Shown in pieces: positions 32,867-52,235 of a stretch of 64,000 nt of DNA. The notes under the pieces are model-generated. The model saw only the letters and a program-made list of their open reading frames with translations. It had not been told where the DNA came from and searched no databases. A program made the position numbers and the translations under genes. The number at the start of each line of letters is the position of its first letter. The stretch's first letter is position 1. The DNA lies in assembly GCA_030673645.1 (NCBI GenBank), contig DAOVIO010000006.1:5027-69026 (forward strand), read 5' to 3'. Source of the stretch: Bacteroidales bacterium. Lineage in GTDB: Bacteria; Bacteroidota; Bacteroidia; Bacteroidales; GCA-2748055.

Positions 32867-32875
32867 TGATTAAAA

Positions 32876-35956: not shown

Positions 35957-36802
35957 ATGAAAACAAAAAATTTGCTTTACACTCTAGCAATATTTGCAAT
36001 CGTTTCAATAATCATCTCTTCATGTGAAAAAAATAGTGATGAGTCCCTCGAAATTGAAATTGCTAAGGATGAAGCATTAAGTGCTTCCTTATTTGATGAT
36101 GTATTTGTTGAAGTGGAGAATGCTATGGAGAATATGGAATATAGGATTTACGATGGCATAAAAAAGTCTGCATCAGATGTTGTTTGTAAAACAATAACTA
36201 TTGAGCATCCCAATGACAGTACTCTATGGCCAAGAACAGTTATTATTGACTATGGTGAAGGTTGTGTGGGGCCGAATGGTCGTGAAAGAAAAGGTAAGAT
36301 AATAATTGTAGTATACAAGCATTATTTAAATGCAGAATATTTCCGCACAGTAACTTTCGATAATTATTATGTAAACGGAAATAAGATTGAAGGAATAAAA
36401 ACTGTTATTAATAAGGGTTTCAATGACAGTCGGAATATGTACTTTTCTCATAGTCTTTCTGAAGGAAAAGTTATTACACCTGAGGGGCTGGAACTTTCAA
36501 AGGAGTATAACAGAATAAGTGAGTTTGTTACCGGAATAAATACACCAAGGTTCAGGGGTGATGACGAATACATGATTACAGGAGCAGCCTCAGGTGTCAA
36601 TCGTGATTTGGTTTCTTATACCCGTACAATTATAGAACCATTACATGTTGCATCTTCCTGCAAATGGATACTATCTGGTACTGTTGAAATAGTTGCTGAA
36701 GAACAAGAAACAGCTATTATTGACTATGGAGATGATACTTGTGATGATAAGGCTACAGTAACTATTGGAAGTACAAGATTGGAAATCAATATTCGTCTGT
36801 AA
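35957..36802 (+). CDS. hypothetical lipoprotein
   Basis: Signal peptide with lipobox IIISSC. No recognisable family. Confidence 0.55.
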   Translation: MKTKNLLYTLAIFAIVSIIISSCEKNSDESLEIEIAKDEALSASLFDDVFVEVENAMENMEYRIYDGIKKSASDVVCKTITIEHPNDSTLWPRTVIIDYGEGCVGPNGRERKGKIIIVVYKHYLNAEYFRTVTFDNYYVNGNKIEGIKTVINKGFNDSRNMYFSHSLSEGKVITPEGLELSKEYNRISEFVTGINTPRFRGDDEYMITGAASGVNRDLVSYTRTIIEPLHVASSCKWILSGTVEIVAEEQETAIIDYGDDTCDDKATVTIGSTRLEINIRL

Positions 36803-37025: not shown

Positions 37026-38258
37026 CTAAAATAGATCGATAATACCAACTATTCCAGCATAAGACATTAAAAGTGTGAAGCCCAGAATAATACTTATTAT
37101 AATATTCTTTGCTAAGCTTATCTTATAATCACCCATAATATTCTTACTATTTAATAAACGTAATAAATAGAAAAGTATAACAGGTGTTGCTAATATGGTT
37201 AATGCTTGCGAAACGATCATTACCAGAACAGGTCTGCCGCCGAAGATAGGTACAACCAGACCAAGTAGAAGTCCGAATAAAACTAATAATCTGGAGTTAG
37301 TACTCTTCATATTTCTGGGTTTACCGTTATAGTCGGCAAAAAGCCAGGGAGCCAGTAACACTATGGGTAATAATGAGGACAATCCGGCACTTACTATTCC
37401 AACTACAAATATCGAAGTAGCAAACCTACCTGCGAGGGGTTCAATTAAGTTCACCATGTCTATGGCATTATCAACCCTTAATCCCCTTACGTACATTGTT
37501 CCGGCAGCAGAGATCATAATAGCTACACTAAGAACAAACATTAATATTGCAGATATTTTTGCATCACGTTTCTCAATTTTAAGATCTTTGATTGTCCAGC
37601 CCTTTTCCTGTACAAGTATAGATCTGACAACAAATAATATTCCTCCCATGGTTGTACCTACCATTCCAGACATAATCAAAAATGAGTTTTTTCCTCCAAC
37701 AATTTTTGGAACCAGCCCATGAAAAATTGAAGCAGGATCAGGATCGACCATGAACATGGTTAATATAAAACTAAGTCCCATTATGGTGACAAAAAAAGTT
37801 AATATTTTTTCAAAGAATCTGTGGCGACCCTGCCAGAAAATATAATACAATATTGATCCAAAAATTAGGGCCATTATTATTGGATTAAATCCATTCCCAG
37901 ACTTGGTTAGTGGTCGTGACCATTCCTGAACAACCTGAGTTACAATACCCATTAACCCCATTGAAGAGATCCATTCACTTATTAGAAGTGCAACGAGTAC
38001 AAAAAGGGCTACTGCTTTACCATAATGCTTTTTATAACTAAATAAAATTGTGTCGCCTGTTAGCATGGTATATTCACCAAAACTGACAATAAGGTAATAG
38101 GTAAAAACACAGGATAATAGTAGTGGCCACATTAATGCCATACCATATTCAGCTCCGGCTGAAGCCATGGTTGTAATACTCCCGGTTCCAATATTATATC
38201 CTATAAGAAAAACTCCGGGGGCAATAGAAGCCAGAAAAAGTCCAATTTTTTTTAACAT
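37026..38258 (-). CDS. NRAMP-family divalent metal (Mn2+/Fe2+) transporter
   Basis: 11-TM protein with N-terminal GPGVFLIGYNIGTGSITT motif region (DPGN-type position). Confidence 0.8.
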   Translation of the reverse strand: MLKKIGLFLASIAPGVFLIGYNIGTGSITTMASAGAEYGMALMWPLLLSCVFTYYLIVSFGEYTMLTGDTILFSYKKHYGKAVALFVLVALLISEWISSMGLMGIVTQVVQEWSRPLTKSGNGFNPIIMALIFGSILYYIFWQGRHRFFEKILTFFVTIMGLSFILTMFMVDPDPASIFHGLVPKIVGGKNSFLIMSGMVGTTMGGILFVVRSILVQEKGWTIKDLKIEKRDAKISAILMFVLSVAIMISAAGTMYVRGLRVDNAIDMVNLIEPLAGRFATSIFVVGIVSAGLSSLLPIVLLAPWLFADYNGKPRNMKSTNSRLLVLFGLLLGLVVPIFGGRPVLVMIVSQALTILATPVILFYLLRLLNSKNIMGDYKISLAKNIIISIILGFTLLMSYAGIVGIIDLF

Positions 38259-38316
38259 AATGCTTTCATATTTAAAAAATCTAATCTATAAAAAATAGTA
38301 TTCAAAAAACCACATT

Positions 38317-38375
38317 AAAAAAGAGCAGAATATTAATCCCGTTAGAGTCTATAAGAACGAAATAATATTCTGCTC
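38317..38375 (-). terminator. intrinsic terminator closing the glycan/phosphatase operon
   Basis: Perfect 13-bp inverted repeat gagcagaatatta (38323-38335) / taatattctgctc (38363-38375). On the minus strand it is followed by TTTTTT (38317-38322). Confidence 0.6.
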
Positions 38376-38415
38376 ATAAATCAACTACTAAGAAAAGTAA
38401 ACAACCAACAACTAT

Positions 38416-40191
38416 CTAATTATTTTCTAAATTTTTAATTCTCTCCAGAACTTCGAGATAACCAACATAATCCTCATCATCCTCTGGAGCCATAAACCAG
38501 TCGGCTCCAATTTTTAATGATTGAAGCATTAGAGTTGTATCTCCAAAATCTCCATAAAGATCTGCCAGATCAAAATGCAGTTCGGCATCATTTGGGACTA
38601 TACTTATACCAGCCATCAGTGCTTCAATTGCTTTCGGGAGATCATTCATTTTTTCAAAAATTTCTGAACGATATTCTGCGGCGTCCGGGCTGTCTGCTGT
38701 AACCTCCTCAAGTCTATCGGTCCATAATAATGCCTCATCCCAATTTTCAAGTTCAATATATATATCAATCAGGGCCTCATAAGTATCTGGAAATTGTGGA
38801 ATTTCTTCATAGGTTTCCAATGCAAGTCCTTTTGCTTTATCAAAATCACCAAGTCCAACATAACAATTGGCCATCAGTCCTTTAGCAATCAAACAATTTG
38901 GATCTTTTTCCAATGCCCATTCAAACTTTGCTATTGCTTCTTCATACAACTCATCGTCTCCGAATAGATCATCACCCTCTTCAACTGCTTCAGCTACATC
39001 CAGGCTAACATCAGCCATAGTTTCAAATGTTAACATTCCTTCTTTATATGACTCCACTGAAGAAGGATCTTTTTTGTCAAGTACAAACTCATCTAGAATC
39101 TCTCCATTAAGCATTGTATGTTTGTAACTCATTACAGATCCATCAATTTCAATACTGGTAAATCCAAAGACCCTTTTTGCTATTTTGGTAAAATTACTGG
39201 GGATTACATATCTCATTGGGGTTCCTCCGTTTCCACAAACTATATAAGTGATAGGCATATTTGCATTTTCACCTATTATGGGAAGGCTACGTTCATAGTG
39301 GTGATCGTGTCCGTTCAGAACCATGTCAACATTATATTCATTGAAAATAGGTACAACAAGATCTTTAATTTTTATCCTCGTATCACTATAATATTGCCCA
39401 CCTGAAGAATACGGTGGGTGATGTTGGAGTACAAATCGCCAGGTCTGATGTTGGTTTTCTTTCAGATCATTTACCAACCATTTTACTTGTTCATCATCAT
39501 CCAGTAAAAATTCCTCGTCAGAACTTAAAATAATAAAATGAGCATTCCCGAAATCAAATGAATACCAACCCTTATTATCAGAAGGTGGAGTAAAATAATT
39601 ATAATAATTTGGGTCATTATCTTCATGATTTCCCTGGATGGTAAATATTGGTATATGGCTGATCATATTCCGTGTAGGAGTGAAAAATAATTTTTCCCAT
39701 TGCTTATGCACTCTACCCCGATCCACTAAGTCTCCATTATGTAATACAAAATCTGCGTCACTTACAGATATGAGATTTGCTACTTTTTCATGATTAAAAG
39801 GGCCATTTTTATTATCGCCGTATACAGCAAATGAAAAAGGAGAATCTTTTTCTACAGCTGTATTAAAATGAAAGATTTCACTCTTTTTACCTGCACTTTC
39901 AACCTGATAGAAGTACTTCGTATCAGTTTCAAGTCCGGATAGAACTACTTCGTGGAGTTTAGCATTTTTATTATCGGACAATTCAGTACCAAGTTCTTCA
40001 GTCTTCCCATAAAAAACGGTGCCATCGGATACGACAACGCCTTCCCAGGAAATATTAATACCGTCCATGCTTACATTCTGTACATAAGGTCCAACATAAA
40101 AAGTATGGGGTACGTCTTCCTTACAAGAACTGAGTAATACCAGTCCAAAAAAGGTAATGAAAAATAAGATTTGTCTTTTAATCTGTTTCAT
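38416..40191 (-). CDS. lipoprotein metallophosphoesterase (purple-acid-phosphatase-like) fused to C-terminal TPR repeats
   Basis: Lipobox LLSSC. Fn3-like PAP N-domain (YVQNVSMDGINISWEG...TKYFYQV). Metallophosphatase motifs GDNKNG, GDLVDRG, GNHE, HHPPY, GHDHHYERS. The last ~200 aa are TPR-like (AIAKFEWALEKDPNC..., ANCYVGLGDFDKA...). Confidence 0.8.
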   Translation of the reverse strand: MKQIKRQILFFITFFGLVLLSSCKEDVPHTFYVGPYVQNVSMDGINISWEGVVVSDGTVFYGKTEELGTELSDNKNAKLHEVVLSGLETDTKYFYQVESAGKKSEIFHFNTAVEKDSPFSFAVYGDNKNGPFNHEKVANLISVSDADFVLHNGDLVDRGRVHKQWEKLFFTPTRNMISHIPIFTIQGNHEDNDPNYYNYFTPPSDNKGWYSFDFGNAHFIILSSDEEFLLDDDEQVKWLVNDLKENQHQTWRFVLQHHPPYSSGGQYYSDTRIKIKDLVVPIFNEYNVDMVLNGHDHHYERSLPIIGENANMPITYIVCGNGGTPMRYVIPSNFTKIAKRVFGFTSIEIDGSVMSYKHTMLNGEILDEFVLDKKDPSSVESYKEGMLTFETMADVSLDVAEAVEEGDDLFGDDELYEEAIAKFEWALEKDPNCLIAKGLMANCYVGLGDFDKAKGLALETYEEIPQFPDTYEALIDIYIELENWDEALLWTDRLEEVTADSPDAAEYRSEIFEKMNDLPKAIEALMAGISIVPNDAELHFDLADLYGDFGDTTLMLQSLKIGADWFMAPEDDEDYVGYLEVLERIKNLENN

Positions 40192-40202
40192 AATAATCTA
40201 TT

Positions 40203-42074
40203 TTATAAGGTTTTGATATTAAAACTATATTGAACATTCTCTAATATTGATGTTGGAGGAAATTCTGTTGTGATAATGATAGGTACCGCCTGAAGAGCAG
40301 GATAAACAGCCCAGTAGTTATCTTTTCTCCCGATTTCCATTTTTACACCCTCAGTTTCGAGTTCCATAATAATCTCTGTAGAGCCGTCTGATATCTTAAT
40401 TAAGATATCTGAAATTTGTTCAATATTTGTCTTTTCATGTAGAATAATGGGCTCAATAATCCTCACATTTTTGAATTCATCATGGAATCTTATTGAAGTC
40501 GATTTTCTTATCACATCATCCGAAAACATATATTTGATACCATATCCTATTCCTCCTTCTTTTTGATCTCTGTTTTTCAACTCCCCATAAGCTGATATGT
40601 TATATATCCCATTTCCTTGATTGAAATCTGATGTAGCATCAAATTCATACAAATTAGTAAAGTATCCTTTATCATTTTTAAATTCTATTCTAGGTGTTAA
40701 GATCTCTATGCTATCAGCTACGGGAAAAGACATTGGCTCCCATCTGTGATATTCAGTTTGAGATGAGGCAGTCAGAAAACCATAATTACGAATAGACAGA
40801 TTAGAAATAGTGCCACCAGTAGGTCTGTGCATATACTTACTTTTTGGCCCTTTCGGATCTTTATAACCATAAGTTGTAAATGTCGCATTGTAATTATTAG
40901 TACTAATTGTTGCTACATTCAAGGTTGGGAAAATTTCAATTCCCGTTGATTCAGAAGGAAGTTTTTTATAAGGTGCAGATTCTGAATTAGTATAACTATG
41001 GGCCATTGCCAGATTTTTCGCTTTAGTAAAAGTTGGATAAATGCAAGGAGGATAATCCATGACCCTCCAGTGGTGCGGACCGTAACCTACTATTCCATCT
41101 TTCATACAGGTTTTAAGGTATTCCAAATTTCGAATTGAGGCATTTGAATAGACAGGATCTTCATCCGAAAACAAGCTGAATAGAACCTGAGAACCGTCAG
41201 ATGTAGCACCACCAAAACAAGTCCATTTATTCGATCTGATTCCCCAGGAAGCGTCTAAAGAACCATCAGGGTAGATAAAATGTATGTGTCTTTTCAGCGA
41301 TTGCCGGATTTTGTCCATAACTATTGAGTCATTATTCAATCTGGCATAAATAGTCATTCCCCATAAAGACATCTCCATATTATAGCCTAAATCAACTCCA
41401 TATTTAATATTAAAGACTCTTCCACCCTCACCAGTGATAAAGTAATCATCATCCATTTTTGCAATAACTCTTGTTGCCAGAGCCTCAGCTTTATCAGAAT
41501 ATTTTTCATCGGGAAATAATTGATATAATGTCATCAAAGTTGCACAAGTAGTTGCAACATAATTAATGCTGGCAAATTCCGGACTCATTACTTCTGTAAG
41601 GTAATTACCTGCATTTTTCATCGAGAAAAGCCACTCCTGATCTTCTTTTTCAGTAAGAAATTCCTTTAAAATTGGGTAAGCCTTTAGCATCATTAATAGC
41701 TGATCTGTAGAAGTCCCTGTCCAATCTTCAGGTGTTTCCTGCCATGAACCGTCTGGATACTGCTGACGAATTAACCAATTTCCCAAAGCTATTGCTGATT
41801 CCCTATATTCAACATCCCCATTTATTGCATATTGATATGCAAAAGGATATACCGCTTCCGCTGCTCTTGTATGATAAAGCTCACACAGAGGACAATCTAT
41901 TGCTCCATAATGTTGATCAGTAGTATCAAGATTCTGCAAATTAAGAAGCGCATGATTTAATATTCCCAATGTAGAAATATATTGCTCTTTTACTTCTATT
42001 TCCTTAATCTCATTGGGTATATTACTACAAGAGGTAAATAAAATTAATCCAATGTATAAAAATAATTTTCTCAT
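40203..42074 (-). CDS. uncharacterised lipoprotein, alpha/alpha-toroid-like N-domain plus beta-rich C-domain
   Basis: Lipobox LFTSC. QW-like repeat RQQYPDGSWQE and a helical-repeat N-half. C-terminal ~250 aa are beta-strand-rich. No family confidently recognised. Confidence 0.55.
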   Translation of the reverse strand: MRKLFLYIGLILFTSCSNIPNEIKEIEVKEQYISTLGILNHALLNLQNLDTTDQHYGAIDCPLCELYHTRAAEAVYPFAYQYAINGDVEYRESAIALGNWLIRQQYPDGSWQETPEDWTGTSTDQLLMMLKAYPILKEFLTEKEDQEWLFSMKNAGNYLTEVMSPEFASINYVATTCATLMTLYQLFPDEKYSDKAEALATRVIAKMDDDYFITGEGGRVFNIKYGVDLGYNMEMSLWGMTIYARLNNDSIVMDKIRQSLKRHIHFIYPDGSLDASWGIRSNKWTCFGGATSDGSQVLFSLFSDEDPVYSNASIRNLEYLKTCMKDGIVGYGPHHWRVMDYPPCIYPTFTKAKNLAMAHSYTNSESAPYKKLPSESTGIEIFPTLNVATISTNNYNATFTTYGYKDPKGPKSKYMHRPTGGTISNLSIRNYGFLTASSQTEYHRWEPMSFPVADSIEILTPRIEFKNDKGYFTNLYEFDATSDFNQGNGIYNISAYGELKNRDQKEGGIGYGIKYMFSDDVIRKSTSIRFHDEFKNVRIIEPIILHEKTNIEQISDILIKISDGSTEIIMELETEGVKMEIGRKDNYWAVYPALQAVPIIITTEFPPTSILENVQYSFNIKTL

Positions 42075-42082
42075 AACATTAA

Positions 42083-43192
42083 TTAATATGCCTGAGTAAT
42101 ATCTTTGTTTTCAGGCAGATCTAATAATGAACATACCTTATGGAATATTTCTGTATTTTCATAAATGCCACCAAAATTCTCCGAGCCTGACCCATAAGCA
42201 AACACTGGAACCATAACACCTGTATTACCATCAGTTGAAAAATGAGCCTCCACTTCGCCTGTTTCATAATTTCCATCAAGAATTGTAACTCCTCCTGATT
42301 CATGATCTGCTGTTACCACTACCAAAGTTCCTGGATTATTATCGGCAAAGTCAAATGCTATTCCAACCACTTCATCAAAGTCTATGGTTTCGGCTAGCAG
42401 ATATTCAAGGTTATTTTCCACTCCAGCAAATTCAATTTGCGAGCCTTCCACCATTAGAAGAAAGCCATCCGGATTTGTTATCAAAGTTTCAAGTGCAAGT
42501 TCCACAGATTTACTCATCATCTCACCACTTCCTTTGTGTGCTTCCTCAACATTATTATTGTCGACCAAAACTGCAAGTTTATCTGATGGCTTTGCTTCAT
42601 CAATGTCATAATAAACTGTGAAGCCTTTCCTTTGTAACTGTTGTGTTAAATCTAAACCGTCAGCTCTGGATTCAAAATACATTAATCCTCCTCCAATAAA
42701 CAGATCAATAGGAGATTGAATGAATTCATGTGCAAGAGTCTCTAATGATTTCAGGTCACAACCATGAACGATAAAAGCTGCAGGAGTTGAATGTAGTATC
42801 GAACTGCTGGTAATTAACCCGGTACTCATTCCTTTGAAGGCAGAAAGCTCAATGATGTTAGGATGAGCCTTCCCAATATCATCAATACCCAGCGAACCAT
42901 TATTTGCTTTTTTACCTATTGCAATTGCAGAAGCTCCTGCTCTGGAATCTGTCACATATTTATTAGCAGATCCTGTCAAGGAAAAACCACAAACTTGAGC
43001 TCTTGACATATTCAAACTCCCTTTATTTGCTGTGAGAGCAGCATGCACTGTGGCAACCCCCATGCCATCGCCAATCATCAAAATGACATTCTTTGTCTCC
43101 TGCTTATCTTTAATCAAATTTTCATAAGATTGATTTCCACAAGAATTGAATATCATTGAAAGAACAAAGAACATAAATGCCAGTCTTTTCAT
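42083..43192 (-). CDS. alkaline-phosphatase-family lipoprotein with non-canonical metal site
   Basis: Lipobox FNSC. AP motifs LMIGDGMG, YVTDSRAGASA, HSTPAAF, VEG, VVTADHE. The positions aligned by eye to E. coli PhoA R166, D327, H331 and H412 read L, E, V and N. Confidence 0.7.
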   Translation of the reverse strand: MKRLAFMFFVLSMIFNSCGNQSYENLIKDKQETKNVILMIGDGMGVATVHAALTANKGSLNMSRAQVCGFSLTGSANKYVTDSRAGASAIAIGKKANNGSLGIDDIGKAHPNIIELSAFKGMSTGLITSSSILHSTPAAFIVHGCDLKSLETLAHEFIQSPIDLFIGGGLMYFESRADGLDLTQQLQRKGFTVYYDIDEAKPSDKLAVLVDNNNVEEAHKGSGEMMSKSVELALETLITNPDGFLLMVEGSQIEFAGVENNLEYLLAETIDFDEVVGIAFDFADNNPGTLVVVTADHESGGVTILDGNYETGEVEAHFSTDGNTGVMVPVFAYGSGSENFGGIYENTEIFHKVCSLLDLPENKDITQAY

Positions 43193-43237
43193 TATGTTAC
43201 AATTTTAATTGAAAAATCAATATTTATCTATTTATCA

Positions 43238-44422
43238 TTAAATCCCATTATTAACAAACTCAGCTACAGGAACTACATATACTTGTGGTATTCCTGATTT
43301 ATCTGAAGTATATCCAATATATTTTCCTGAGGAACTGAAAAAGGGGTGTACATGTGAAAATTTCCCATCTCCAGAATCCATTGACGAATTCGGCCAGTCA
43401 ATAATTTTTGATTTTCCTGTTTCGAGATTAATAAGTGTTAGGGGATTCGTTCCCGGCTCCTGGGAATCGGAAATAAACCACTTACCTGAGACATCAGAAA
43501 TGCCATGCCCAAGTCTTACAGTATCTGAGCCATAATATACTATTTCATTATTCCCATTTTTATCCATTGAATAAATTGAAACAGGTAACCAACCTGGCAC
43601 AGTTTTTTGAAAGAAAAAGAACTTTTCTCCATCGGTTGACCATGTTTCATGAGTAGCTCTGAAACCTTTTTCTCGAGTAAGAAATTGCCTCACTATTCCG
43701 GAAGAGAGATCAATTATCCAGTTTCTGGCTCGTAATTCCTGAGGCAAACTCATATCATTCTGAGTATCAGGTCCCGGAACAAAGCTTATTAAATCAGGGT
43801 ATACAGGGTTAATAAGTGGATGAGAGATTCTTCCACCTATTTTCTCATGAGCAAGAATAATTTCATCGGTGCTCAGGTTGACTCTGAATATCTTATTTGA
43901 TTCCTCTTCTACCGATGAGAACAGAGTGTATTCTCCATTGTTGGTGAATGAACCAGAAAATCTAATTCTTCCTGATATTCTTCCCTTTATATCGAACAAA
44001 ATTTCCTCCTTTTTGCTTTCAATATTTGTGGCATAAAGTTTCCCCTCATCAAAATAGCAAACCTGTTGTCCATCTGGATGAACAGTATAATCATCATCGT
44101 GAATTAACCTTCCCTCCGGAGATAAAACAGTATAGTTTCCTGTATTCAAATCTACTCGATAAAGCTTCCAGTCACCGGATCGCACTGAAGAATAAATGAA
44201 ATACTTATCATCACCGGAAAATGCCTGGCGTTCAAAGTAACATGCAACGCTGGCAGAATCGTGGTTTGTTAATTGCCATACTTCCACGCCGGTTCTGGCA
44301 TCAGTGGTTTTAATCCACTCGGGAGGATAATTGATAGAATCCGACTCATTACAAGCCAATAAAAAAGAGAGAATTAGGAAGAACATAAAAAAGTTAACAT
44401 TTTTTCTATTGTAATTGCTCAT
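43238..44422 (-). CDS. beta-propeller lipoprotein, oligogalacturonide-lyase (PL22)-like
   Basis: Lipobox LLAC. TDARTGVEVWQLTN...YFERQAFSGDDKYFIYSS...WKLYRVDLNTG follows the N-terminal pattern of oligogalacturonate lyases. A TolB/DPP-IV-type propeller cannot be excluded. Confidence 0.5.
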   Translation of the reverse strand: MSNYNRKNVNFFMFFLILSFLLACNESDSINYPPEWIKTTDARTGVEVWQLTNHDSASVACYFERQAFSGDDKYFIYSSVRSGDWKLYRVDLNTGNYTVLSPEGRLIHDDDYTVHPDGQQVCYFDEGKLYATNIESKKEEILFDIKGRISGRIRFSGSFTNNGEYTLFSSVEEESNKIFRVNLSTDEIILAHEKIGGRISHPLINPVYPDLISFVPGPDTQNDMSLPQELRARNWIIDLSSGIVRQFLTREKGFRATHETWSTDGEKFFFFQKTVPGWLPVSIYSMDKNGNNEIVYYGSDTVRLGHGISDVSGKWFISDSQEPGTNPLTLINLETGKSKIIDWPNSSMDSGDGKFSHVHPFFSSSGKYIGYTSDKSGIPQVYVVPVAEFVNNGI

Positions 44423-45791
44423 CTTCTAATATATTATTTGTATAATCCATTCCGTTTATTTGAATATTTTCAACTTTCAGGCTCCCAACATTCTCAGTTT
44501 TAAATGCTGATGTGGCATTGTTAACCGTCACATTTTTAATGTTAATATTTTGAAGAGGTTTTTCTTCTGAACCAATTAAGGAAATACCATATTCTTCTGC
44601 ATTTTCACAAACTATGTTTTCAATAAACACATTCCTGAATTGTGGAGGATGACCTTCTCCTTCATTTTTATAGTTTGAATCTATCAGAATTGCGGATCTG
44701 GCATTTTGAAACTCGATATTTCTGACATAAATATTTTCCACGATTCCACCTCTGTCTTTGTTTCCTTTCAAATAAATACCATAAACAACATCTCCTGCAA
44801 ATCCGCAATCTTCAATAAAAATATTATTTACACCTCCCGACATCTCACTTCCAACTGCAAAAGAGTTTAGCCCTTTAAAATTGCAGTTTCTGATAATGAT
44901 ATTTTTAGATTCACGCTTTAGTGTTCGCGCTTCCAAATCTCTTCCTGATTTAATAGCAATATTGTCATCCATATTACTAAACTCAATATTCTCAATAAGA
45001 ACATTCTCACATGATTCTGCATCTATTCCATCATTATTAGGATTTTGCGCATCATATCTTACTTTTCTGACAATAATATTTTTAGAAAAAATTACATGAA
45101 TGCACCAGAATGGTGAATCTGTGATTATTATGTCTTCAATCAGAATATTTTCACACTCATAGAACTGCACCATATGTGGTCTTAAAAAATGTCCTTCACC
45201 AAAAATTCTATCTTCCAGCGGAACATTTGTATTATTCATTTTTCTGCTAAGAAGTTTATCCGGATTCTGGATTTTTTTCCAGGCCGACCATGTTTCTGCA
45301 GCTTCTCCATCAATTTCCCCTTTACCCGAAATGATTATATTTTTTTTGTTAATAGCATAAATAAAGGGTGAATAATTATATATTCTTGTTCCTTCCCAAC
45401 TGGTTAATACATTCGGCAAATAATCTTTAGGGTCAGAACTAAAGAATAATCTGGCTCCTTCTTCAAGGTGAAGATTTATATTGCTTTCAAGGTGTAAGGG
45501 TCCTTTCATAAAATAATTTCCTTCCGGGACAATTATTTTCCCACCTCCATTTTCAGTGCAGTGCTCTATAATTTCATGAAAAGCCTGAATATTATCAAAC
45601 CTTCCATCTCCAATTCCTCCAAAATCGAGCAAATTGAAGTTATTATCCTGAATAACTGGCTCAGTAATCTGATTAAGTATAGTTTCAACTTTATCCCATC
45701 CTGATGGCTCAGCATTCTCGACTTTTTGCTTACAGGCTGAAAAATTAATTAGAAGTAAAATTCCGGCAAAGATTAATATCTTATTCTTCAT
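44406..45791 (-). CDS. glycoside hydrolase family 28 (polygalacturonase-like) lipoprotein
   Basis: GH28 motifs NPNNDGID, MDDNIAIKSG, AVGSEMSGG, GNKDRGG. The lipoprotein signal MKNKILIFAGILLLINFSAC starts at ATG 45791, whereas the track extension begins with TTG. Confidence 0.85.
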   Translation of the reverse strand: MKNKILIFAGILLLINFSACKQKVENAEPSGWDKVETILNQITEPVIQDNNFNLLDFGGIGDGRFDNIQAFHEIIEHCTENGGGKIIVPEGNYFMKGPLHLESNINLHLEEGARLFFSSDPKDYLPNVLTSWEGTRIYNYSPFIYAINKKNIIISGKGEIDGEAAETWSAWKKIQNPDKLLSRKMNNTNVPLEDRIFGEGHFLRPHMVQFYECENILIEDIIITDSPFWCIHVIFSKNIIVRKVRYDAQNPNNDGIDAESCENVLIENIEFSNMDDNIAIKSGRDLEARTLKRESKNIIIRNCNFKGLNSFAVGSEMSGGVNNIFIEDCGFAGDVVYGIYLKGNKDRGGIVENIYVRNIEFQNARSAILIDSNYKNEGEGHPPQFRNVFIENIVCENAEEYGISLIGSEEKPLQNINIKNVTVNNATSAFKTENVGSLKVENIQINGMDYTNNILEDEQLQ

Positions 45792-45795
45792 ACAT

Positions 45796-47550
45796 TTAGT
45801 TTTTATTTTCAATTAATTGTAATATCTCCATTCCGGCATTTATTACCGCCCCCAGACCTCGTGGATCATGATCGGGAGTATTACGTTTTTTGTAAAAATC
45901 AGGGTCTGTACTCATCGATGTTCCCTGACAAATACCAGTAACCGTTCCATCATTAGCGATCTTTGATGCCACAGCTCCCCATGTAATTTCGGCTGTCTCT
46001 ATATAAGTTTTATCAAGCCATCCCATGTTTATTCCTCTGCTCATTGCCAGTGATAATAAGGCCGTTGAAGAGGTCTCTTCAAAAGTTTCAGAATCATCAA
46101 TTATCTGATGCAGAAAGCCGTTTGAATTTTGATGCTTTAGAAGTGCGGAAATGTGTTTTTTATAATACCTGAGTATTGGTTTATAATCTGAATGATCAAC
46201 TGGTAAGTCTTTCAATACTTCTGAAACTCCCCATATTAGCCATCCATTTGCTCTGCTCCAAAAAGGCATAACATTTGAGGGATTTGAATGGCAATACCCG
46301 TGATGACATAAGCCAGTTTTCTTGTCCATGAGAAGTTCATAGAAAAGGAGGATCTGATTTGCTGCTTCATCAATATATTTCTCATCTCCCGTTAATTCTC
46401 CGTACATCATGAAAAAAGGAGCACTCATGAATAAATCATCTGCCCAAACGGTCTTTTCCCAGGGCTCAGGTCTGCACAGAATACCACTTGGTAATCTGCT
46501 TTGCCCGTTTAAGACATAATCAGCTATTTTATGAATCAAGTCTTCCGCCTCGGGAAGTTTATTCTCATTAAGTAAAGAAATGAATGGCAGAGCCGGAGCA
46601 GGTGCATCGTCTAACATTGCCATTCTAAAAATTCGATTATTAAAACCATGAATATCATATAATTCATGAAATTGATACTCAAAAACCGGTAGGTTCTCAA
46701 TAGTAAAATCACAATATTTTTCAACAAATCCTGTGTAATCGGGCATTTGGGTAAATCGGGCAAAATTCAAAACAGACCACAATGTTGCTCCAGTGGAATA
46801 GTGCCATTCATTGTATGGGTGCTTAGTAAATGATGCGTTATCAGGTGGTTTAACCCTGATTGTCAATTTCTGCGGGAATGTCTTCCAGGATAGAAAGCCA
46901 TCCTCAACAGAATAAAAAGGTAAAATTCCGTTTTCAACTGAAGGTGTAGGAAGATTTTCCTGCGAAAAAGGTCCAATCGTAATCCATGGGGTTTCAAATT
47001 CAAGATTAAAGAGATTTAAACTGAAATGAACATCATCGTTTAAAAATCCATTTTTATGTGTGGCTACAATTCCAAATTTTGCGTCATTGATATGCTCGTG
47101 CCTGACAAGAATGTCATTTACCCCCTTATTTAATAAAACGGAAATGACCGTATCTGATTTATAAATATCGTACGCTATTTCCTTGAATATAAATTCTTTG
47201 AATTCGAGTTGTCTGAATACTAATTCTTTATTTATCCAAATAGAAATTGGTGAGTTCGAAGACAATGAAAAATGAATACTTTCATTGTTTGCAGATTCAA
47301 TTTGAGAATAGGAGTACTGAATTTCTTTGTGCGAAAAATCTGAGAAATCTAATATCTGATAAGAATTAGTATTATTAAGGAGTCGAAAAGAGAATTCAAA
47401 ATTTGTATCCCGAATTATTTTATCAATTACACTATTGGTGACCTCTTTAATTTCATCTGAGTTCAGAACTCCATTGTATTGAGAGAATGATGAAGAGCTA
47501 AATACAAGTATGAAAATACTAATGAAACAATATTTAAGACTTCGGCTCAT
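45796..47550 (-). CDS. glycoside hydrolase family 105/88 (unsaturated rhamnogalacturonyl/glucuronyl hydrolase) with ~230-aa N-terminal extra domain
   Basis: VWADDLFMSAPFF (W-x-D-D/G-x-x-M catalytic region) and YteR-like (alpha/alpha)6 helices from about aa 235 onward. Signal peptide present. The N-terminal beta-rich module is unassigned. Confidence 0.8.
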   Translation of the reverse strand: MSRSLKYCFISIFILVFSSSSFSQYNGVLNSDEIKEVTNSVIDKIIRDTNFEFSFRLLNNTNSYQILDFSDFSHKEIQYSYSQIESANNESIHFSLSSNSPISIWINKELVFRQLEFKEFIFKEIAYDIYKSDTVISVLLNKGVNDILVRHEHINDAKFGIVATHKNGFLNDDVHFSLNLFNLEFETPWITIGPFSQENLPTPSVENGILPFYSVEDGFLSWKTFPQKLTIRVKPPDNASFTKHPYNEWHYSTGATLWSVLNFARFTQMPDYTGFVEKYCDFTIENLPVFEYQFHELYDIHGFNNRIFRMAMLDDAPAPALPFISLLNENKLPEAEDLIHKIADYVLNGQSRLPSGILCRPEPWEKTVWADDLFMSAPFFMMYGELTGDEKYIDEAANQILLFYELLMDKKTGLCHHGYCHSNPSNVMPFWSRANGWLIWGVSEVLKDLPVDHSDYKPILRYYKKHISALLKHQNSNGFLHQIIDDSETFEETSSTALLSLAMSRGINMGWLDKTYIETAEITWGAVASKIANDGTVTGICQGTSMSTDPDFYKKRNTPDHDPRGLGAVINAGMEILQLIENKN

Positions 47551-47564
47551 ATAGATATTTATTT

Positions 47565-47614
47565 AAAAATTATCGGATGTTATTCATTTAAACAAACATA
47601 TAACACCCGATAAT
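47565..47614 (-). terminator. intercistronic hairpin (partial terminator/attenuator) between the T9SS cargo gene and GH105
   Basis: 15-bp stem with one mismatch (attatcgggtgttat / ataacatccgataat on the minus strand) followed by TTTT. It ends only ~15 nt before the GH105 ATG. Confidence 0.45.
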
Positions 47615-47680
47615 TATTTAATAAGAAATTATGCTCCTTGTTATGTCAAGCTATAATCACTTATTCCATAATACAAAGTA

Positions 47681-49177
47681 TTATTTTTGAACAGCAAACT
47701 TACCGGCATCTAACAATTCAGATGCAGCATTAACTCTGTACAAATAAATACCATTCTCCAAATCACTTATATTTAGGCTGAAAGCATGACGACCCTGCTC
47801 ATAAGAGAAAGATTTAATTACCTGACCTGCCATATTAAAGATTCTTATTTCAAGTTCGTTAGTTTTTTCAGTGTTAATTCTCATATATAAATTATTCCTT
47901 GCAGGTACCGGATAAATTAAAACAGGACTACTATTGATTCTGTCAACATCAAAACTTGTAGGGATTGAATTTGTCCACTGTGGACTACCTAACATTCCAC
48001 CTGTTTTTGAAGCTGTTGCAGAAATAGCGTCAGCATTAATATTAAAAGTATAGCCACTTTCTCCAGGATTAACAAGGTCTGTGTCTGCATAATAATTAGG
48101 AACATCAACCAGATCTACTTCGCCATCATTTTCATGATATACTGCAATATAATTCAATGGAGCTGGAGGTGCATTGTCAAAAGCCAGCTTTTCATGAATA
48201 AGATTGGTAGTATCTAATTGTCCGTTGGCTGCAAAGAGCATCATACTACTATCAAGAAAAGGTGCTTGAACTCTGGATCCGTTATTATTAATGGCATCAA
48301 TTTGGCCTTGCTCATAATACAGATTATTATTTGAGAAGTCGAAATGACGATCTGCATCAGAAATTTCATCGATTGTTCCCAAAGAATCATTTGTTAAGAA
48401 TCCTGATGGGTCAAGTGGCTCCATTCCCTGCCAATTCATATTGTATAAAATGTTATTAGTGATTTTAGCTTTAAGTATTCCATCTAAGTCAAATCCTTCT
48501 CCTGCAACAAATACCGTATTATGATCAAAATGAAAATATTTAACATAAGCACCATCTGTTCTAAAAATCAGATCGCCATGATGTGAAATAGTAGTATTTT
48601 CAATCCAGATAGTATCTGTTTGATTTCCTCTTGTATCGACTACCCTGCCATTATTTGGACCGTTAACATTAAGAATGTTACGATATGTACAATTTGTAAT
48701 GAACACTTTTGCTCCAGATGCATCCAGGCGTAGTGGACATTGTGCATCATAATCGTAAAAACAATCATGCAGTACAATTCTAAGATCTTCTATCCCAGCT
48801 CTTTGAACATTTTTTACAATATTTCCTATATCATCTTTAGCGGTTATATATAAACTTTCAAGAGTAAGATCGCCTCCTATTGAAAATATCCGGTCAGACT
48901 CAGAGTTTTCATCTGCTGCAGGTTGAAGGATTGGACGAGGACCATCACCAGCCTCAGCACGGATATGTAATGGGTAGTTTGTTGAAATCCGACCATTCAT
49001 GTAATAGATCCCACCTCTTCTTAGTTCATAAATTACCGAGCTGGTATCAGCTTCAACTGCAGCATTTAAAGCACCAACGTTTACACCTTCATCTGGCTCT
49101 ACAACCACAACAGGTAATTGGGCAAATCCTGTGGAAAAGATTCCAAGAAAAAACAAAATAGTAAATAAGTTTTTCAT
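47681..49177 (-). CDS. secreted right-handed beta-helix-like protein with T9SS type-A C-terminal sorting domain
   Basis: Signal peptide. Repetitive N/D/G-rich beta-helix-like core (ITNCTYRNI, IENTTISHHGD, ITNNILYN). The last ~80 aa (VLIYPVPARNNLYMRI...GIYLYRVNA...GKFAVQK) match the Por-secretion tail pattern. Confidence 0.75.
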   Translation of the reverse strand: MKNLFTILFFLGIFSTGFAQLPVVVVEPDEGVNVGALNAAVEADTSSVIYELRRGGIYYMNGRISTNYPLHIRAEAGDGPRPILQPAADENSESDRIFSIGGDLTLESLYITAKDDIGNIVKNVQRAGIEDLRIVLHDCFYDYDAQCPLRLDASGAKVFITNCTYRNILNVNGPNNGRVVDTRGNQTDTIWIENTTISHHGDLIFRTDGAYVKYFHFDHNTVFVAGEGFDLDGILKAKITNNILYNMNWQGMEPLDPSGFLTNDSLGTIDEISDADRHFDFSNNNLYYEQGQIDAINNNGSRVQAPFLDSSMMLFAANGQLDTTNLIHEKLAFDNAPPAPLNYIAVYHENDGEVDLVDVPNYYADTDLVNPGESGYTFNINADAISATASKTGGMLGSPQWTNSIPTSFDVDRINSSPVLIYPVPARNNLYMRINTEKTNELEIRIFNMAGQVIKSFSYEQGRHAFSLNISDLENGIYLYRVNAASELLDAGKFAVQK

Positions 49178-49218
49178 AATAATAGATTTAGTTAATAATT
49201 AGATTTGATAAAATACAT

Positions 49219-52149
49219 TTAGAAAAATTTATATTTCAATCCAATGTTTGCACGCATCCCATAGTATTCTACGCTGCTATAATAGCCTGTAATTAACCGA
49301 GCGGTACGATCTGGTTGATTAAGAATATTATTCAGGCTAACATTTATACTTAGTTTTTCGCTTAAATTTTGTTTAAGCTGAAAATCCCACTTATAAAATG
49401 CAAGTGTTGCCTCGGTATCTGAGCCGTCTATACGTCTTTGCTCATCAGTCAGAATTTGATCTGTATAAGTAAATGACAGTCGGGCAGAGAAACCTTTACG
49501 ATCGTACCCCAGAGATACATTGGCAAGATACCTTGCCTGAAATAGCATTCTGTCTACATATGCTGTATCAAAGTTTACAAAAATTCTTCTTGCTTCTCCA
49601 GGAAGACCATAATCAGGGTTTATCATCCTTTGTATTAAGGTCTCATTATAATAGGTTTCTGAGTCCATAAGAGTAAAGTTTCCACTGAATACTATACCAT
49701 TAAAAGGCGCAGGCAGAAAATTCATATTTGTCTGGATTTCTGTTTCAAATCCTTTAATAATTGTAAGGGCAGAATTGTTTGTCGGATAGCTCATAGAATA
49801 ACCTGCATAACTATCTGGTATGCCAAAAGATTCAGGGGAAAGTGGTGTCCCGGGATTTAATCTTACAGTACGGTCATAAACAAAACCATCAATTATTTTA
49901 TGGAAAAGTCCTATAGTATACAATCCGGCTTTAGGTGTATAGAATGAAAGAATGGCGTCCCAATTTTCTGATTTTACAGGTTCGAGATAGGTTCCTGAAA
50001 GCTTTATTGATAAAGAGCTGGGAGAGATTTGCATTCGGGGAGCAAGGTCAGTATAATCTGGTCGTGACAGTGTATTGGTGTAAGCCAATCTGAGGTCAAC
50101 CCAATCCCAAGGTTTTATTTTCAAATGAATTTGAGGCAGGAAGTGTGTATAACTATTGCTTGTAGTCGTATCCTCAATAATTTGATTTGCAATTTCGCTA
50201 AAATCATCATCAGGAATGGCATCTCCAATGAATGCTGTGTATTCTAAAAAGGTTTTTTCCATTCTTACACCTGGAATAAAAGTTATTTTATCCCACATAT
50301 AAAATTCAAACATCCCATAAGTAGCAAAAATCTCCTCATAACCTGTATAGTCATGTTTAACATGTCCCGAAAAAACAGTATCATAGTAACCCTTACCTAC
50401 CAATTCATAAAAATCATTAGTAAGATCTCTTTGCATAACATAACTTAAGTCCATAACAGGATAATCACCATTTAAGAATTCTTCAGTTTCATAGCTATCG
50501 TCTAAGAAACTTGTAATTCCAATTAGATTCATATGGGCAGATGGTTCCAGTCCGGGCATAAGACTTTCCACGTAAGCTGTCTCCGGAGCACCATCAAAGC
50601 GAATCTGATAAGATTTTGTATCTCTTGTTTTATTTTTTACTCTAAATTTTGTCCCTGTCTTGAAACTCCCCCTAATGGATTTACCAATTTGAAAAGGGAT
50701 TTCCCAATTCAACCAGGCATTAGTTTCATTTTCAGGTGTTTCAAAACTTGAGAAAGTACCATCATATAAATAAATCTCATCTACTTGCTCATCTACGTAT
50801 TGGTCAGTTAATATTTCCTCAGGTGGCAAAGTATTAAAAACATCTGTGTTTTCTAAATATGCAGATAACTGCCTGAAAACCATATGATGATTATATGGTT
50901 GTTTCTGCATAGAACTTGATTGACCGATTCCCCAGTCTAATTTTGTTCCTAACAGATTATGTTTTCCCTCAATAGCATTAGAAAATATAAGACCTGTCTG
51001 ATCAACTTCCCTTTGTTTAAACTCAAGGTAATTTGAATTCAGATCATAATTCTTCTCACGTATGAAATAGTCTCTGTTTAATGCGCTAAAGAAAGTAGAA
51101 GTTTTAATAAGGGAATTCTTAAATTTATAATCCAGAAAGATACTTCCGTTATATCTGCCTCGTTGTTCAATTACCGATTTCAGATCTTCCTCTCCTATCC
51201 ATGGTTTAATGAATGTTTCACCTGCTGCGGTATCAACTATGCCACTGACTTCATAATCGACTTCCCATTGGTCGGAGCTTCTGTCATAGGATTCCGCGCT
51301 TGCAGAGAAAAGCATCCCTAGTTTATTATCAAAAAACCTGTTACTAAAGAATAAATTAGCTTTATAGTGACCAATTGTGTTTGTTTGTCCGCTGTACCCT
51401 GTCTGTAAATTAACATTTAATTTCTTCCCAGGTGCCGCCTCCTTTAAAACCAGATTAACATTCCCTCCCAATCCATCAGCATCCTTATCAGCTGTATTTG
51501 CCTTCATTACTTCAATACCGCTAATTATATCGGCAGAAACCAGGTTAAGATCTGTGCTTCGATCATCCAAGTCTGTTGAGGGAGCCATAAGCCCATTTAT
51601 TGATACTGTATTATATTTAGGTTCAAATCCTCTAATGATTACTTTCTGACCTTCTCCCCCATCTCTTTGAACAGTAATTCCAGGTAACCTCCCAATTGCT
51701 TCAGCAGCATTAATATCAGGTAATTCTTGTAGTTTTTCAGAAGAGATTACATTAATAATTGCATTTGAACTTAATTGTTGATTTATAGCAGCTATTTGTC
51801 CTCTGGCTTGTGCCGTAATAATAACTTCTTCTCCCTGAAAAACCTGTGGAGTAAGTTCGACCTCCATATATGGAGATTCATTCTTTTTAATTAAAATTTC
51901 TCTTGTTTCCAATGCGAAACCCAGGAAATAAAATTCAATTTTTTGATTTCCTTCCGGGATTCCAAGCAAATCAAAATTTCCATTTAAATCGGTTATAGTA
52001 CCAATTGTCGTACCACTTACTCTTATTGAAGCACCGGGTAACCACTCTCCTGAATTAGCATCTTTTACTGTTCCAGATATGGAGCCGCTTTGAGCAACTA
52101 ATAGAGAACTAAATGAAATAAATAATATGACAAATAAATTTTTCTTCAT
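49219..52149 (-). CDS. TonB-dependent receptor with N-terminal carboxypeptidase-regulatory-like domain
   Basis: Signal peptide, GSISGTVKDANSGEWLPGASIRVSGTTIGTITDLNGNF, plug domain, ~22-strand barrel ending GLKYKF. No SusD-like gene follows. Confidence 0.9.
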   Translation of the reverse strand: MKKNLFVILFISFSSLLVAQSGSISGTVKDANSGEWLPGASIRVSGTTIGTITDLNGNFDLLGIPEGNQKIEFYFLGFALETREILIKKNESPYMEVELTPQVFQGEEVIITAQARGQIAAINQQLSSNAIINVISSEKLQELPDINAAEAIGRLPGITVQRDGGEGQKVIIRGFEPKYNTVSINGLMAPSTDLDDRSTDLNLVSADIISGIEVMKANTADKDADGLGGNVNLVLKEAAPGKKLNVNLQTGYSGQTNTIGHYKANLFFSNRFFDNKLGMLFSASAESYDRSSDQWEVDYEVSGIVDTAAGETFIKPWIGEEDLKSVIEQRGRYNGSIFLDYKFKNSLIKTSTFFSALNRDYFIREKNYDLNSNYLEFKQREVDQTGLIFSNAIEGKHNLLGTKLDWGIGQSSSMQKQPYNHHMVFRQLSAYLENTDVFNTLPPEEILTDQYVDEQVDEIYLYDGTFSSFETPENETNAWLNWEIPFQIGKSIRGSFKTGTKFRVKNKTRDTKSYQIRFDGAPETAYVESLMPGLEPSAHMNLIGITSFLDDSYETEEFLNGDYPVMDLSYVMQRDLTNDFYELVGKGYYDTVFSGHVKHDYTGYEEIFATYGMFEFYMWDKITFIPGVRMEKTFLEYTAFIGDAIPDDDFSEIANQIIEDTTTSNSYTHFLPQIHLKIKPWDWVDLRLAYTNTLSRPDYTDLAPRMQISPSSLSIKLSGTYLEPVKSENWDAILSFYTPKAGLYTIGLFHKIIDGFVYDRTVRLNPGTPLSPESFGIPDSYAGYSMSYPTNNSALTIIKGFETEIQTNMNFLPAPFNGIVFSGNFTLMDSETYYNETLIQRMINPDYGLPGEARRIFVNFDTAYVDRMLFQARYLANVSLGYDRKGFSARLSFTYTDQILTDEQRRIDGSDTEATLAFYKWDFQLKQNLSEKLSINVSLNNILNQPDRTARLITGYYSSVEYYGMRANIGLKYKFF

Positions 52150-52213
52150 CTTTTTGAAACTTATGAATAAATGATCTAAATAAAATTAACAACTAAATCA
52201 ATTAAAATCAAGT

Positions 52214-52235
52214 TATAACATGTTATATACATGTA
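52214..52235. promoter_or_regulatory. candidate operator: adjacent perfect palindromes
   Basis: tataacatgttata (14 bp, 52214-52227) is immediately followed by tacatgta (52228-52235). Both lie 65-85 nt upstream of the TBDR start and share an ACATGT core. Confidence 0.25.

Follow-up and report, generated by a model that had tools for sequence, protein, structure and literature searches.

A candidate SusD-less glycan utilisation locus of a Bacteroidales bacterium with a putative terminal-uronate dehydratase and accessory phosphatases

Which acidic glycan would require enzymes reminiscent of pectin breakdown together with phosphatase-like lipoproteins? This question is raised by six minus-strand genes at positions 38416-47550 of a 64,000-nt stretch of a Bacteroidales bacterium genome (GenBank assembly GCA_030673645.1, contig DAOVIO010000006.1, positions 5,027 to 69,026), hereafter called the window. 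A preliminary description of this DNA regarded the cluster as a self-contained system in which pectin-type enzymes are coupled to phosphatases. The self-contained view could not be maintained, because a receptor, a secreted protein and a permease encoded nearby also belong to the system. Herein, we propose that the six genes supply the enzymes of a TonB-dependent glycan utilisation locus without SusD, that the functional unit is wider than the six genes (about 37026-53613) and includes the receptor, the secreted protein, the permease and a possible regulator, that a putative uronate dehydratase would work together with a GH105 hydrolase, and that phosphatases may be accessory modules. We give this model as a whole a probability of about 0.55.

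In order from the upstream end, the six genes encode a long GH105 of 584 aa (45796-47550), a GH28 lipoprotein (44406-45812), a PL22-like beta-propeller lipoprotein (43238-44422), an alkaline phosphatase (AP)-family lipoprotein (42083-43192), a 623-aa lipoprotein with an (alpha/alpha)-toroid fold, here called the toroid protein (40203-42074), and a lipoprotein in which a purple acid phosphatase (PAP)-like domain is joined to TPR repeats, here called PAP-TPR (38416-40191). The GH28 open reading frame (ORF) opens with TTG, and an alternative ATG at 45791 would give a protein of 461 aa; with the ATG start, the gene order and the junctions of +4, -17, +45, +8 and +11 nt given in the preliminary description were reproduced. 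The same description had predicted five lipoproteins and one conventional signal peptide, and inspection of the N-termini by eye agreed, with a Cys lipobox in five of the six products (FSAC, LLAC, FNSC, FTSC and LSSC) and a plain signal peptide in GH105. Most of its domain calls were also confirmed by Pfam, namely GH88/105, GH28, PL22 (weakly), Alk_phosphatase, and the combination of Pur_ac_phosph_N, Metallophos and TPR in PAP-TPR. The Pfam scan of the window was applied to ORFs of at least 150 aa and covered 47 of 52, and no match to the pectate lyase, pectin esterase or kdu families was observed among these. The remaining genes of the window are housekeeping genes (mreBC, PBP2, rodA, purH, pfk, priA, clpXP, tig, tatC and recQ), and the locus is thus a discrete island.

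The toroid protein had been considered a member of no known family, and in our own scans it matched nothing in the local copies of Pfam and NCBIfam, even at an E-value of 0.1. Nevertheless, all of its homologues that were listed carry PF25840 and PF25841 (Ulvan_lyase_N and Ulvan_lyase_C) as precomputed annotations, and it is from these annotations alone that the family name is taken. At 45-60% identity, 624 homologues were detected in Bacteroidota, Ignavibacteria and Calditrichota, and an exhaustive search returned 589 representative clusters. An alignment-based AF2 model of the protein (pLDDT 87.9, pTM 0.89) retrieved with Foldseek uronate enzymes composed of an (alpha/alpha) toroid and a beta-sandwich, with E-values down to 3e-14; these structural neighbours include PL35 glycosaminoglycan lyases, dermatan-sulfate epimerase, and lyases of families PL15, PL8, PL12, PL33 and PL17, at approximately 10% identity and a TM-score of approximately 0.55. 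Sequence and profile searches of the PDB returned only noise.

A more specific parallel is provided by P29_PDnc, a "conserved unknown" of the Formosa agariphila ulvan polysaccharide utilisation locus (PUL), which dehydrates saturated terminal glucuronic or iduronic acid to a 4,5-unsaturated uronate that is then removed by a GH105 enzyme (PMC8511951). The conserved residues D248, E254, E255, D269, D290, R300, K303 and Y306 of P29_PDnc have been mutated, and Asp248, Arg300 and Lys303 were essential (PMC8511951). Six of these eight are found in the toroid protein at a single offset of -20 (D228, E234, D249, D270, R280 and K283), the mismatches being Met for Glu255 and Cys for Tyr306, and none of 745 unrelated ORFs from the loci fetched for comparison reached six matches at any offset. 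Across a 123-member superfamily alignment, the Asp is present in 120 members, the Arg in 117 and the Lys in 114, all eight residues are present in 54, and the majority residues at the two mismatch columns are Glu and Tyr. Although indirect, this pattern is hard to explain except by homology to P29_PDnc. A P29_PDnc-like identity would explain the partnership with GH105, which lies in the same gene cluster here and occurs together with the toroid gene in 29 of 36 long related loci. We propose that the toroid protein might act as a terminal-uronate 4,5-dehydratase (or exo-lyase) and thereby supply GH105 with its substrate. Separately, C61, C64 and H68 (Cys-x2-Cys-x3-His) and the distant C344 of the toroid protein are kept in about 86-106 of the 123 superfamily members, which suggests a structural or catalytic metal site, possibly for zinc; no metal site is mentioned for P29_PDnc, which was reported to be cofactor-independent (PMC8511951).

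The three other glycan enzymes match known families. In GH105, the Glyco_hydro_88 domain scores 235 bits on residues 240-579 and contains the WxDD motif as WADDLFM; in the PDB, 3k11 scores highest (181 bits), and matches to YteR (86 bits) and the ulvan GH105 4ce7 were also obtained. Residues 1-239 match no Pfam family, yet this N-terminal domain of about 235 aa is kept in homologues, as shown by full-length alignments with proteins from Fidelibacterota (L010, residues 26-582; L numbers denote the fetched loci) and Dysgonomonas. The GH28 protein (Pfam, 104 bits) is matched best by the NCBIfam model of the BT4155 alpha-D-galacturonidase, at 339 bits against an equivalog cut-off of 800, and is probably an exo-acting alpha-galacturonidase-like enzyme. 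For the PL22-like protein, the Pfam score of 56 bits is weak but above the cut-off, and comparison with the Yersinia oligogalacturonate lyase (OGL) structure 3pe7 revealed that His242 (the base), His287, His353, His355 and the Arg are kept and that Gln350 is replaced by Lys, with three of the four Mn ligands of YeOGL retained. Known OGLs are cytoplasmic, unlike this lipoprotein, and PL22-like homologues were observed in only 6 of 86 related loci.

The conservation of the gene set was examined using 80 metagenome loci fetched around toroid homologues and genome loci found via PAP-TPR, in which ORFs were clustered and recurrent clusters annotated; the PAP-TPR scan of the genome collection was dominated by generic PAP patterns, and only about 6 of the 80 loci from that scan hold true PAP-TPR orthologues. 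Among 86 loci, the most frequent neighbours of the toroid gene are GH28 (37 loci), GH105 (35) and a GntR-LacI hybrid regulator (35), followed by GH20 (31), a TIGR01782-like receptor (30), a 415-aa toroid protein (27), a 950-aa protein with a galactose-binding-like domain (22), a xylose-isomerase-like TIM barrel (21), GH2 (20), NagB-like proteins (18), PhyH (16), a type IX secretion system (T9SS) 498-aa protein (15), PAP-like phosphoesterases (14), SSF (11), MFS (10) and Nramp-like (7) transporters, and the PL22-like protein. Of the 36 loci longer than 18 kb, 29 contain GH105, 25 contain GH20 and 24 contain GH28. The related loci mostly possess GH20, GH84-like, GH2 and NagB-like genes. No pectate or rhamnogalacturonan lyase, pectin esterase or kduI/kduD-type gene is found among the recurrent neighbours. 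Because the relatives carry hexosaminidase and NagB-like genes, amino-sugar/uronate polymers of microbial or host origin are more probable substrates of the family than pectin; the label "pectin-type" given earlier to these enzymes is therefore doubtful. The 415-aa protein that often accompanies the toroid gene (e.g. L001 6354-7604, L004 7428-8675 and L089 12300-13547) is itself (alpha/alpha)-toroid-like, with faint matches to GH88, GH127, C5-epimerase and LanC; against PDB sequences, it gave one weak partial match, to the designed protein 7on6 (E-value 7e-5), and none to GH154, and its family appears to be uncharacterised.

PAP-TPR recurs in this gene set as orthologues of 41-52% identity. 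The gene stands directly after the toroid gene in a metagenome-assembled genome of Bacteroides sp. (L009/L089) and in L105, L109 and L110. In Fidelibacterota (L010/L090), it follows the long GH105. In bacterium BMS3Abin04 (L013), it is flanked by a NagB-like gene and GH28 and has the receptor/T9SS pair nearby, and in Calditrichaceae (L017) it comes after this pair. On a complete chromosome of Gemmatimonadota (L173), a receptor gene and a gene for a 493-aa protein lie on one side of it and the toroid gene on the other, and in the metagenome loci L116, L160 and L163 it is found beside other genes of the system. The PAP-TPR gene set thus spans Bacteroidota, Fidelibacterota, Calditrichota, Gemmatimonadota and one unclassified bacterium. 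This conservation across phyla, in which PAP-TPR has the toroid gene, the long GH105 or the receptor/T9SS pair as a neighbour, was what the preliminary description had proposed to look for in relatives, and chance juxtaposition of the six genes is rejected on the basis of this recurrence.

Other phosphatases take a similar place in related loci. TPR-less PAPs of 403-429 aa are found in the equivalent position in L115, L142 and L143, and in the latter two the PAP gene directly precedes an Nramp-like gene, as PAP-TPR does in the window. In L171, a TPR-less PAP of 413 aa is encoded upstream of the receptor in divergent orientation. The gene immediately upstream of the toroid gene codes for a histidine acid phosphatase of branch 2 (His_Phos_2) in L113 and for an AP-like protein in L098, L171 and L172. 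In a hand tally, about 11 of 17 loci of the receptor/T9SS type contain some phosphatase and about 6 contain none. The presence of three or four unrelated phosphatase lineages in one gene set is the strongest argument that removal of phosphate esters is relevant to the substrate, and it suggests that the acidic target polymer might carry phosphate groups. We propose that the phosphatases are accessory modules that may have been recruited independently by different lineages.

The two phosphatase-like proteins of the window differ in the state of their active sites. PAP-TPR, with Pur_ac_phosph_N, Metallophos and TPR domains, keeps the motifs GD, GDxx, GNHE, H and GHxH, and thus six of seven metal ligands; the chromophoric Tyr is replaced by Asp157, and the protein would therefore not be "purple". 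All of 25 orthologues, which come from several phyla, have the same metal-ligand motifs, and the position of Asp157 varies among orthologues. The sequence CKEDV at and after the lipid-anchor Cys fits the Bacteroidota surface-export signal, which suggests that PAP-TPR is probably exposed at the cell surface. The AP-like protein is a member of its family (Alk_phosphatase, 181 bits; best PDB match 2iuc, the TAB5 enzyme, 232 bits), and it retains the Ser nucleophile and the Zn2 and Mg ligands. When compared with the reference residues (in E. coli numbering, Asp327, His331 and His412 for Zn1, Asp51, Asp369 and His370 for Zn2, and Arg166), its Zn1 ligands are changed from Asp to Glu, His to Val and His to Asn, and Leu replaces the Arg that binds phosphate. 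It differs in these positions from TAB5 and from ordinary Bacteroidales APs, in which none of the residues altered here is lost. Its only close relatives, P0242 (81%) and P0243 (76%), as well as P0343 from L171 and the ORF from L098, lack the first Zn1 His and have E, Q, G or a gap instead, and the L098 copy additionally lacks the Ser and the Asp-His pair. Varied substitution of catalytic residues while the fold is retained characterises a pseudo-enzyme. The AP-like protein, presented at first as a phosphatase, is thus probably not an active one, and it might serve as a binding or accessory protein; with its degenerate active site, it is weak evidence for phosphatase chemistry.

Several observations weigh against the proposed model. 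Many of the metagenome loci are near-duplicates, and the independent observations are fewer than the counts given above. No phosphatase is present in L133, L134, L145 and L162. The two closest relatives of the locus have no phosphatase next to the toroid gene. In L091, whose toroid protein is 73% identical, the Nramp-like gene directly follows the toroid gene with no phosphatase there, and in L008 (86% identical) a regulator-like gene occupies the place upstream of the toroid gene, not an AP-like gene. The coupling of phosphatases to this system, as first described, was extended by the AP-like genes of L098, L171 and L172 and the histidine acid phosphatase of L113, but the phosphatases are accessory and not universal. 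Upstream of the closest genomic homologue of PAP-TPR (L011, 70%), the neighbouring genes are unrelated, and in L174 a distant homologue lies in another context. Moreover, the window represents a compact variant without GH20, GH2, the NagB-like gene, the 415-aa toroid and the GntR-LacI regulator, and its substrate may differ from that of its relatives. The proposed homology to P29_PDnc was judged from the residue numbers of the paper, used as a spacing pattern, and not from its sequence (WP_038530528.1). Finally, terminator-like hairpins part the six genes from the receptor/T9SS pair on one side and from the Nramp-like gene on the other.

Both hairpins had been predicted earlier, and their folding energies supported this prediction. 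The hairpin 3' of the PAP-TPR gene (38317-38375, minus strand) lies in a segment (38305-38385) with a folding energy of -22.8 kcal/mol and a z-score of -5.5, and that between the T9SS gene and GH105 (47565-47614, minus strand) in a segment (47555-47625) of -21.8 kcal/mol with a z-score of -6.5; in each case 0 of 200 shuffles was as stable, and a U-run follows. Both have long loops, and for this reason they were not flagged by a simple terminator scan. In the loop of the upstream hairpin, the sequence TATGTTTG at 47600-47593 (minus strand) matches the Bacteroidota -7 box and precedes the GH105 start codon by 43 nt. By chance, about 0.09 matches of this kind would be expected in the 130-nt gap that separates the T9SS gene from GH105. 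This hairpin could act as a terminator or an attenuator, a promoter may overlap with it, and the six genes may form their own transcript or the distal part of a longer, attenuated one.

Upstream of the six genes, on the same strand, a 976-aa TonB-dependent outer-membrane receptor of the "TonB-Xanth-Caul" type is encoded (49219-52149; Pfam CarboxypepD_reg, Plug and beta-barrel domains). The receptor passes the TIGR01782 model (374 bits, cut-off 310) and fails the SusC/RagA model TIGR04056 (78 bits, cut-off 368), and in profile scans no SusD gene was found next to it; the T9SS-secreted 498-aa protein (47681-49177, minus strand), which has no SusD match, stands in that place. A canonical SusC/SusD-type PUL of Bacteroidota is rejected on these grounds. 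Homologues of the receptor, with 33-36% identity, are those counted above in 30 of the 86 loci, and we propose that it may import oligosaccharides. The T9SS protein, which carries a Por_Secre_tail domain at residues 421-486, is paired with the receptor in 15 related loci. When a 13-member alignment of this family (A4) was compared with PDB sequences and Pfam, the tail domain alone was matched, and a single-sequence AlphaFold model of the protein (pLDDT 34) showed no usable fold. Faint matches in the family, to Disaggr_assoc in two members and to Beta_helix or DUF4957 in single members, may hint at a beta-helix and perhaps a depolymerase, but they are too weak to be used; Disaggr_assoc is related to the disaggregatase of Methanosarcina. 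The protein is proposed to be an extracellular binding or depolymerising component.

Further upstream, an ORF of 408 aa (52387-53613, minus strand) is a tentative ToxR/CadC-like, membrane-bound one-component regulator of the system. Its first 110 aa match Trans_reg_C, a winged helix of the OmpR type, below the cut-off (20.7 bits, E-value 4e-4, cut-off 26.2), and they are followed by a hydrophobic helix at about residues 115-135 and a C-terminal domain of about 270 aa without a family; the regulator-like gene of L008 mentioned above encodes a 57% identical homologue, and a 29% homologue is found beside the receptor in L115. At the other end, 157 nt downstream of the PAP-TPR gene, a divergent SLC11/Nramp-like permease is encoded (37026-38258, minus strand; Pfam Nramp, 201 bits; nearest PDB entries 7qia and 10ky, of the NRMT type). 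The metal-binding motifs are not kept, with DPGN in transmembrane helix 1 changed to NIGT and MPH in helix 6 to MGG, and the motif GYNIGTGS is common to all seven locus-linked homologues, which makes a role in metal transport doubtful. Such homologues directly follow the toroid gene in L091 and the PAP gene in L142 and L143. The protein is a candidate inner-membrane importer of the system and is likely to be mis-annotated as a Mn/Fe transporter.

Taken as a working order for these components, the proposed model may be described as follows. The T9SS 498-aa protein and the PAP-TPR lipoprotein would engage an acidic, phosphate-bearing glycan at the cell surface, where the PAP domain would take off phosphate mono- or diesters that block exo-enzymes, a deblocking role that is played by sulfatases and esterases in other loci. 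The TonB-dependent receptor would bring oligosaccharides into the periplasm, in which the P29_PDnc-like protein would turn the saturated uronate at the non-reducing end into a 4,5-unsaturated one and the long GH105 would hydrolyse it off, so that an endo-lyase would be unnecessary. GH28 and the PL22-like enzyme would take off alpha-linked (galact)uronate units, the AP-like lipoprotein might act as a binding or accessory protein, and the Nramp-like permease without metal motifs might carry a product into the cytoplasm. Beyond this model, it is conceivable, and we put it forward only tentatively, that the multi-phylum system serves for a phosphorylated or phosphodiester-linked acidic glycoconjugate of microbial or plant necromass, with PAP-TPR as a glycan-specific surface phosphoesterase, the AP fold as a non-catalytic phosphoglycan-binding lipoprotein, and the Nramp fold without a metal site as importer of an organic product. 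Candidate substrates, which are speculation, would be teichuronic- or teichoic-type wall polymers, phosphodiester-anchored capsules, head groups of glycosyl-inositol-phosphoryl-ceramide (GIPC), and methanochondroitin-like polymers. PAP and histidine acid phosphatase families include phytases, and GFO/IDH/MocA and xylose-isomerase-like TIM-barrel genes recur nearby in related loci; phytate, inositol and GIPC were considered as substrates for these reasons, and methanochondroitin in view of the faint Disaggr_assoc matches, and in all cases the evidence was too thin to go beyond speculation.

Three other explanations of the locus deserve to be weighed against the proposed model. The most conventional is an ordinary end-game locus for pectin or rhamnogalacturonan, in which GH28, GH105 and PL22 act on the glycan and the phosphatases merely share the operon for general phosphate scavenging; the preliminary description had raised a coupled carbon-plus-phosphate module of this kind as an alternative. 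The closeness of GH28 to the BT4155 alpha-galacturonidase model, the GH105 and PL22 matches, the retained catalytic residues of PL22 and the fact that AP and PAP families are classic phosphate-starvation enzymes all speak in this direction. However, no pectate or rhamnogalacturonan lyase, pectin esterase or kduI/kduD was found among the scanned ORFs of the 64-kb window, no pst or pho genes are nearby, and related loci bear GH20, GH84-like, GH2 and NagB-like genes instead. Scavenging does not predict that three unrelated phosphatase folds should recur in the gene set across phyla, nor does it accord with a catalytically degenerate AP-like protein, and we consider this explanation improbable.

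A second question is whether the toroid protein could be a true polysaccharide lyase, a PL40-like "ulvan lyase" that cuts inside a uronate polymer, with GH105 trimming the products and no dehydratase step. The names of the Pfam families of its homologues are in line with this, and the top structural neighbours are without exception uronate-active lyases or epimerases. The catalytic residues of the PL40 enzyme Uly1040 are Asn245, Trp246, Tyr305 as the acid, His485 as the base, and Asp358 and His487 at the Mn site (PMC12915356), and in a constant-offset scan at most two to three of these six were matched on the toroid protein, which is the same as background, although indels make such a scan a weak test over long distances. 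The residue pattern of P29_PDnc, on the other hand, is in exact register with the toroid protein, and none of seven ulvans was cleaved by a lyase activity of P29_PDnc (PMC8511951); in addition, no significant PDB match was obtained by sequence or family profile. A lyase seems unlikely, though less so than pectin degradation with phosphate scavenging. Doubt may also be directed at PAP-TPR, which might be mainly a structural or binding protein, e.g. with its TPR domain serving the SusD-less receptor as a lid or adaptor in the manner of SusD, or might act on a non-glycan phosphoester such as nucleotides, extracellular DNA or phospholipid head groups. Its gene often adjoins the receptor/T9SS pair (L017, L116 and L173), SusD proteins are TPR-like, and the AP-like neighbour is an example of non-catalytic reuse of an enzyme fold within the locus. 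On the other hand, the PAP metal-ligand motifs are invariant across the 25 orthologues, and in other loci its place is taken by TPR-less PAPs or a histidine acid phosphatase, which indicates that catalytic activity and not the TPR domain is the selected feature; this last alternative appears the least likely of the three.

The proposed locus shares features with several known systems. Formosa PUL H, with P29_PDnc and P33_GH105 (PMC8511951), has in common with the locus the same spaced residues (Asp, Glu, Asp, Asp, Arg and Lys) and the pairing with GH105, and the chemistry in common would be dehydration of a terminal uronate followed by hydrolysis of the unsaturated residue. Unlike PUL H, the locus contains no sulfatases, GH78, PL24/25/28 or SusC/SusD, and phosphatases are present instead of sulfatases (PMC8511951); its substrate is not ulvan. 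The hosts also differ, since Formosa belongs to the marine Flavobacteriia, whereas the gene set described here is found in sediment and anaerobic-type Bacteroidales, Fidelibacterota, Calditrichota and Gemmatimonadota. The same logic, in which a dehydratase prepares a saturated uronate at the non-reducing end for an unsaturated uronyl hydrolase, is known from the GH154 glucuronate dehydratase BcGDH and GH88 of Bacteroides caccae PUL25, where hexosaminidases accompany the pair as they do in the related loci (PMC12269599). GH154, which acts with GH88 in chondroitin degradation, is unrelated in sequence to P29_PDnc (PMC12269599), and among PDB sequences the toroid protein gave no match to GH154. 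The rhamnogalacturonan-I/pectin PULs of Bacteroides thetaiotaomicron also combine a BT4155-type GH28 with GH105 in one locus, but here SusC/SusD, PL1/9/11/26 and CE8/CE12 are lacking and GH28 remains at 339 of the 800 bits of the model. Xanthomonas/Caulobacter-type loci resemble the present one in having a TIGR01782 receptor without SusD and clustered enzymes with an inner-membrane transporter; the differences are the hosts (Bacteroidota and allied phyla), the T9SS-protein partner and an Nramp-like instead of an MFS transporter. The cold-active alkaline phosphatase TAB5 (2iuc) has the same compact architecture of about 370 aa as the AP-like protein, in which two Zn1 His and the Arg are missing and the Zn1 Asp is Glu. 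A precedent for a phosphatase within a glycan locus is BT3783 of the B. thetaiotaomicron yeast-mannan PUL, which removes phosphate from a phosphorylated glycan; its fold, substrate and locus type are different.

The logic of a dehydratase followed by an unsaturated uronyl hydrolase is already known (PMC8511951, PMC12269599), as are TonB-dependent, SusD-less carbohydrate loci. Full-text literature searches returned no description of this gene combination, of recurrent phosphatases in it, of a degenerate AP-fold lipoprotein or of an Nramp-like partner without metal motifs, and the gene set conserved across five phyla and these three features appear to be new. If the model is correct, the dehydratase and unsaturated uronyl hydrolase route would extend from marine ulvan degraders to the phyla of anaerobic sediments and digesters and to new, non-sulfated substrates, and phosphate-bearing acidic polymers would be a significant source of carbon and phosphorus in sediments. 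It would be the first case known to us of a glycan utilisation system in which decorations are recurrently removed by phosphatases and not by sulfatases or esterases. Two candidate re-uses of folds would also be added, namely an alkaline phosphatase turned into a pseudo-enzyme and an Nramp-like transporter without its metal site, and the pipeline labels "alkaline phosphatase" and "Mn/Fe transporter MntH-like" are probably misleading here.

Two minor observations were made next to the locus. Just past the Nramp-like gene, on the opposite strand (35957-36802, plus strand), lies a gene for a predicted lipoprotein of 281 aa with an SSC lipobox and no Pfam match. Beyond it, at approximately 31194-34151 on the minus strand, a small block adjoins a family-1 glycosyltransferase; in the precomputed annotation of contig L005, which is identical, genes with an AbiEii-type toxin domain (32876-33571) and an ORF6N domain (about 31194-31841) are assigned to this block, and it may be a defence or toxin-antitoxin module.

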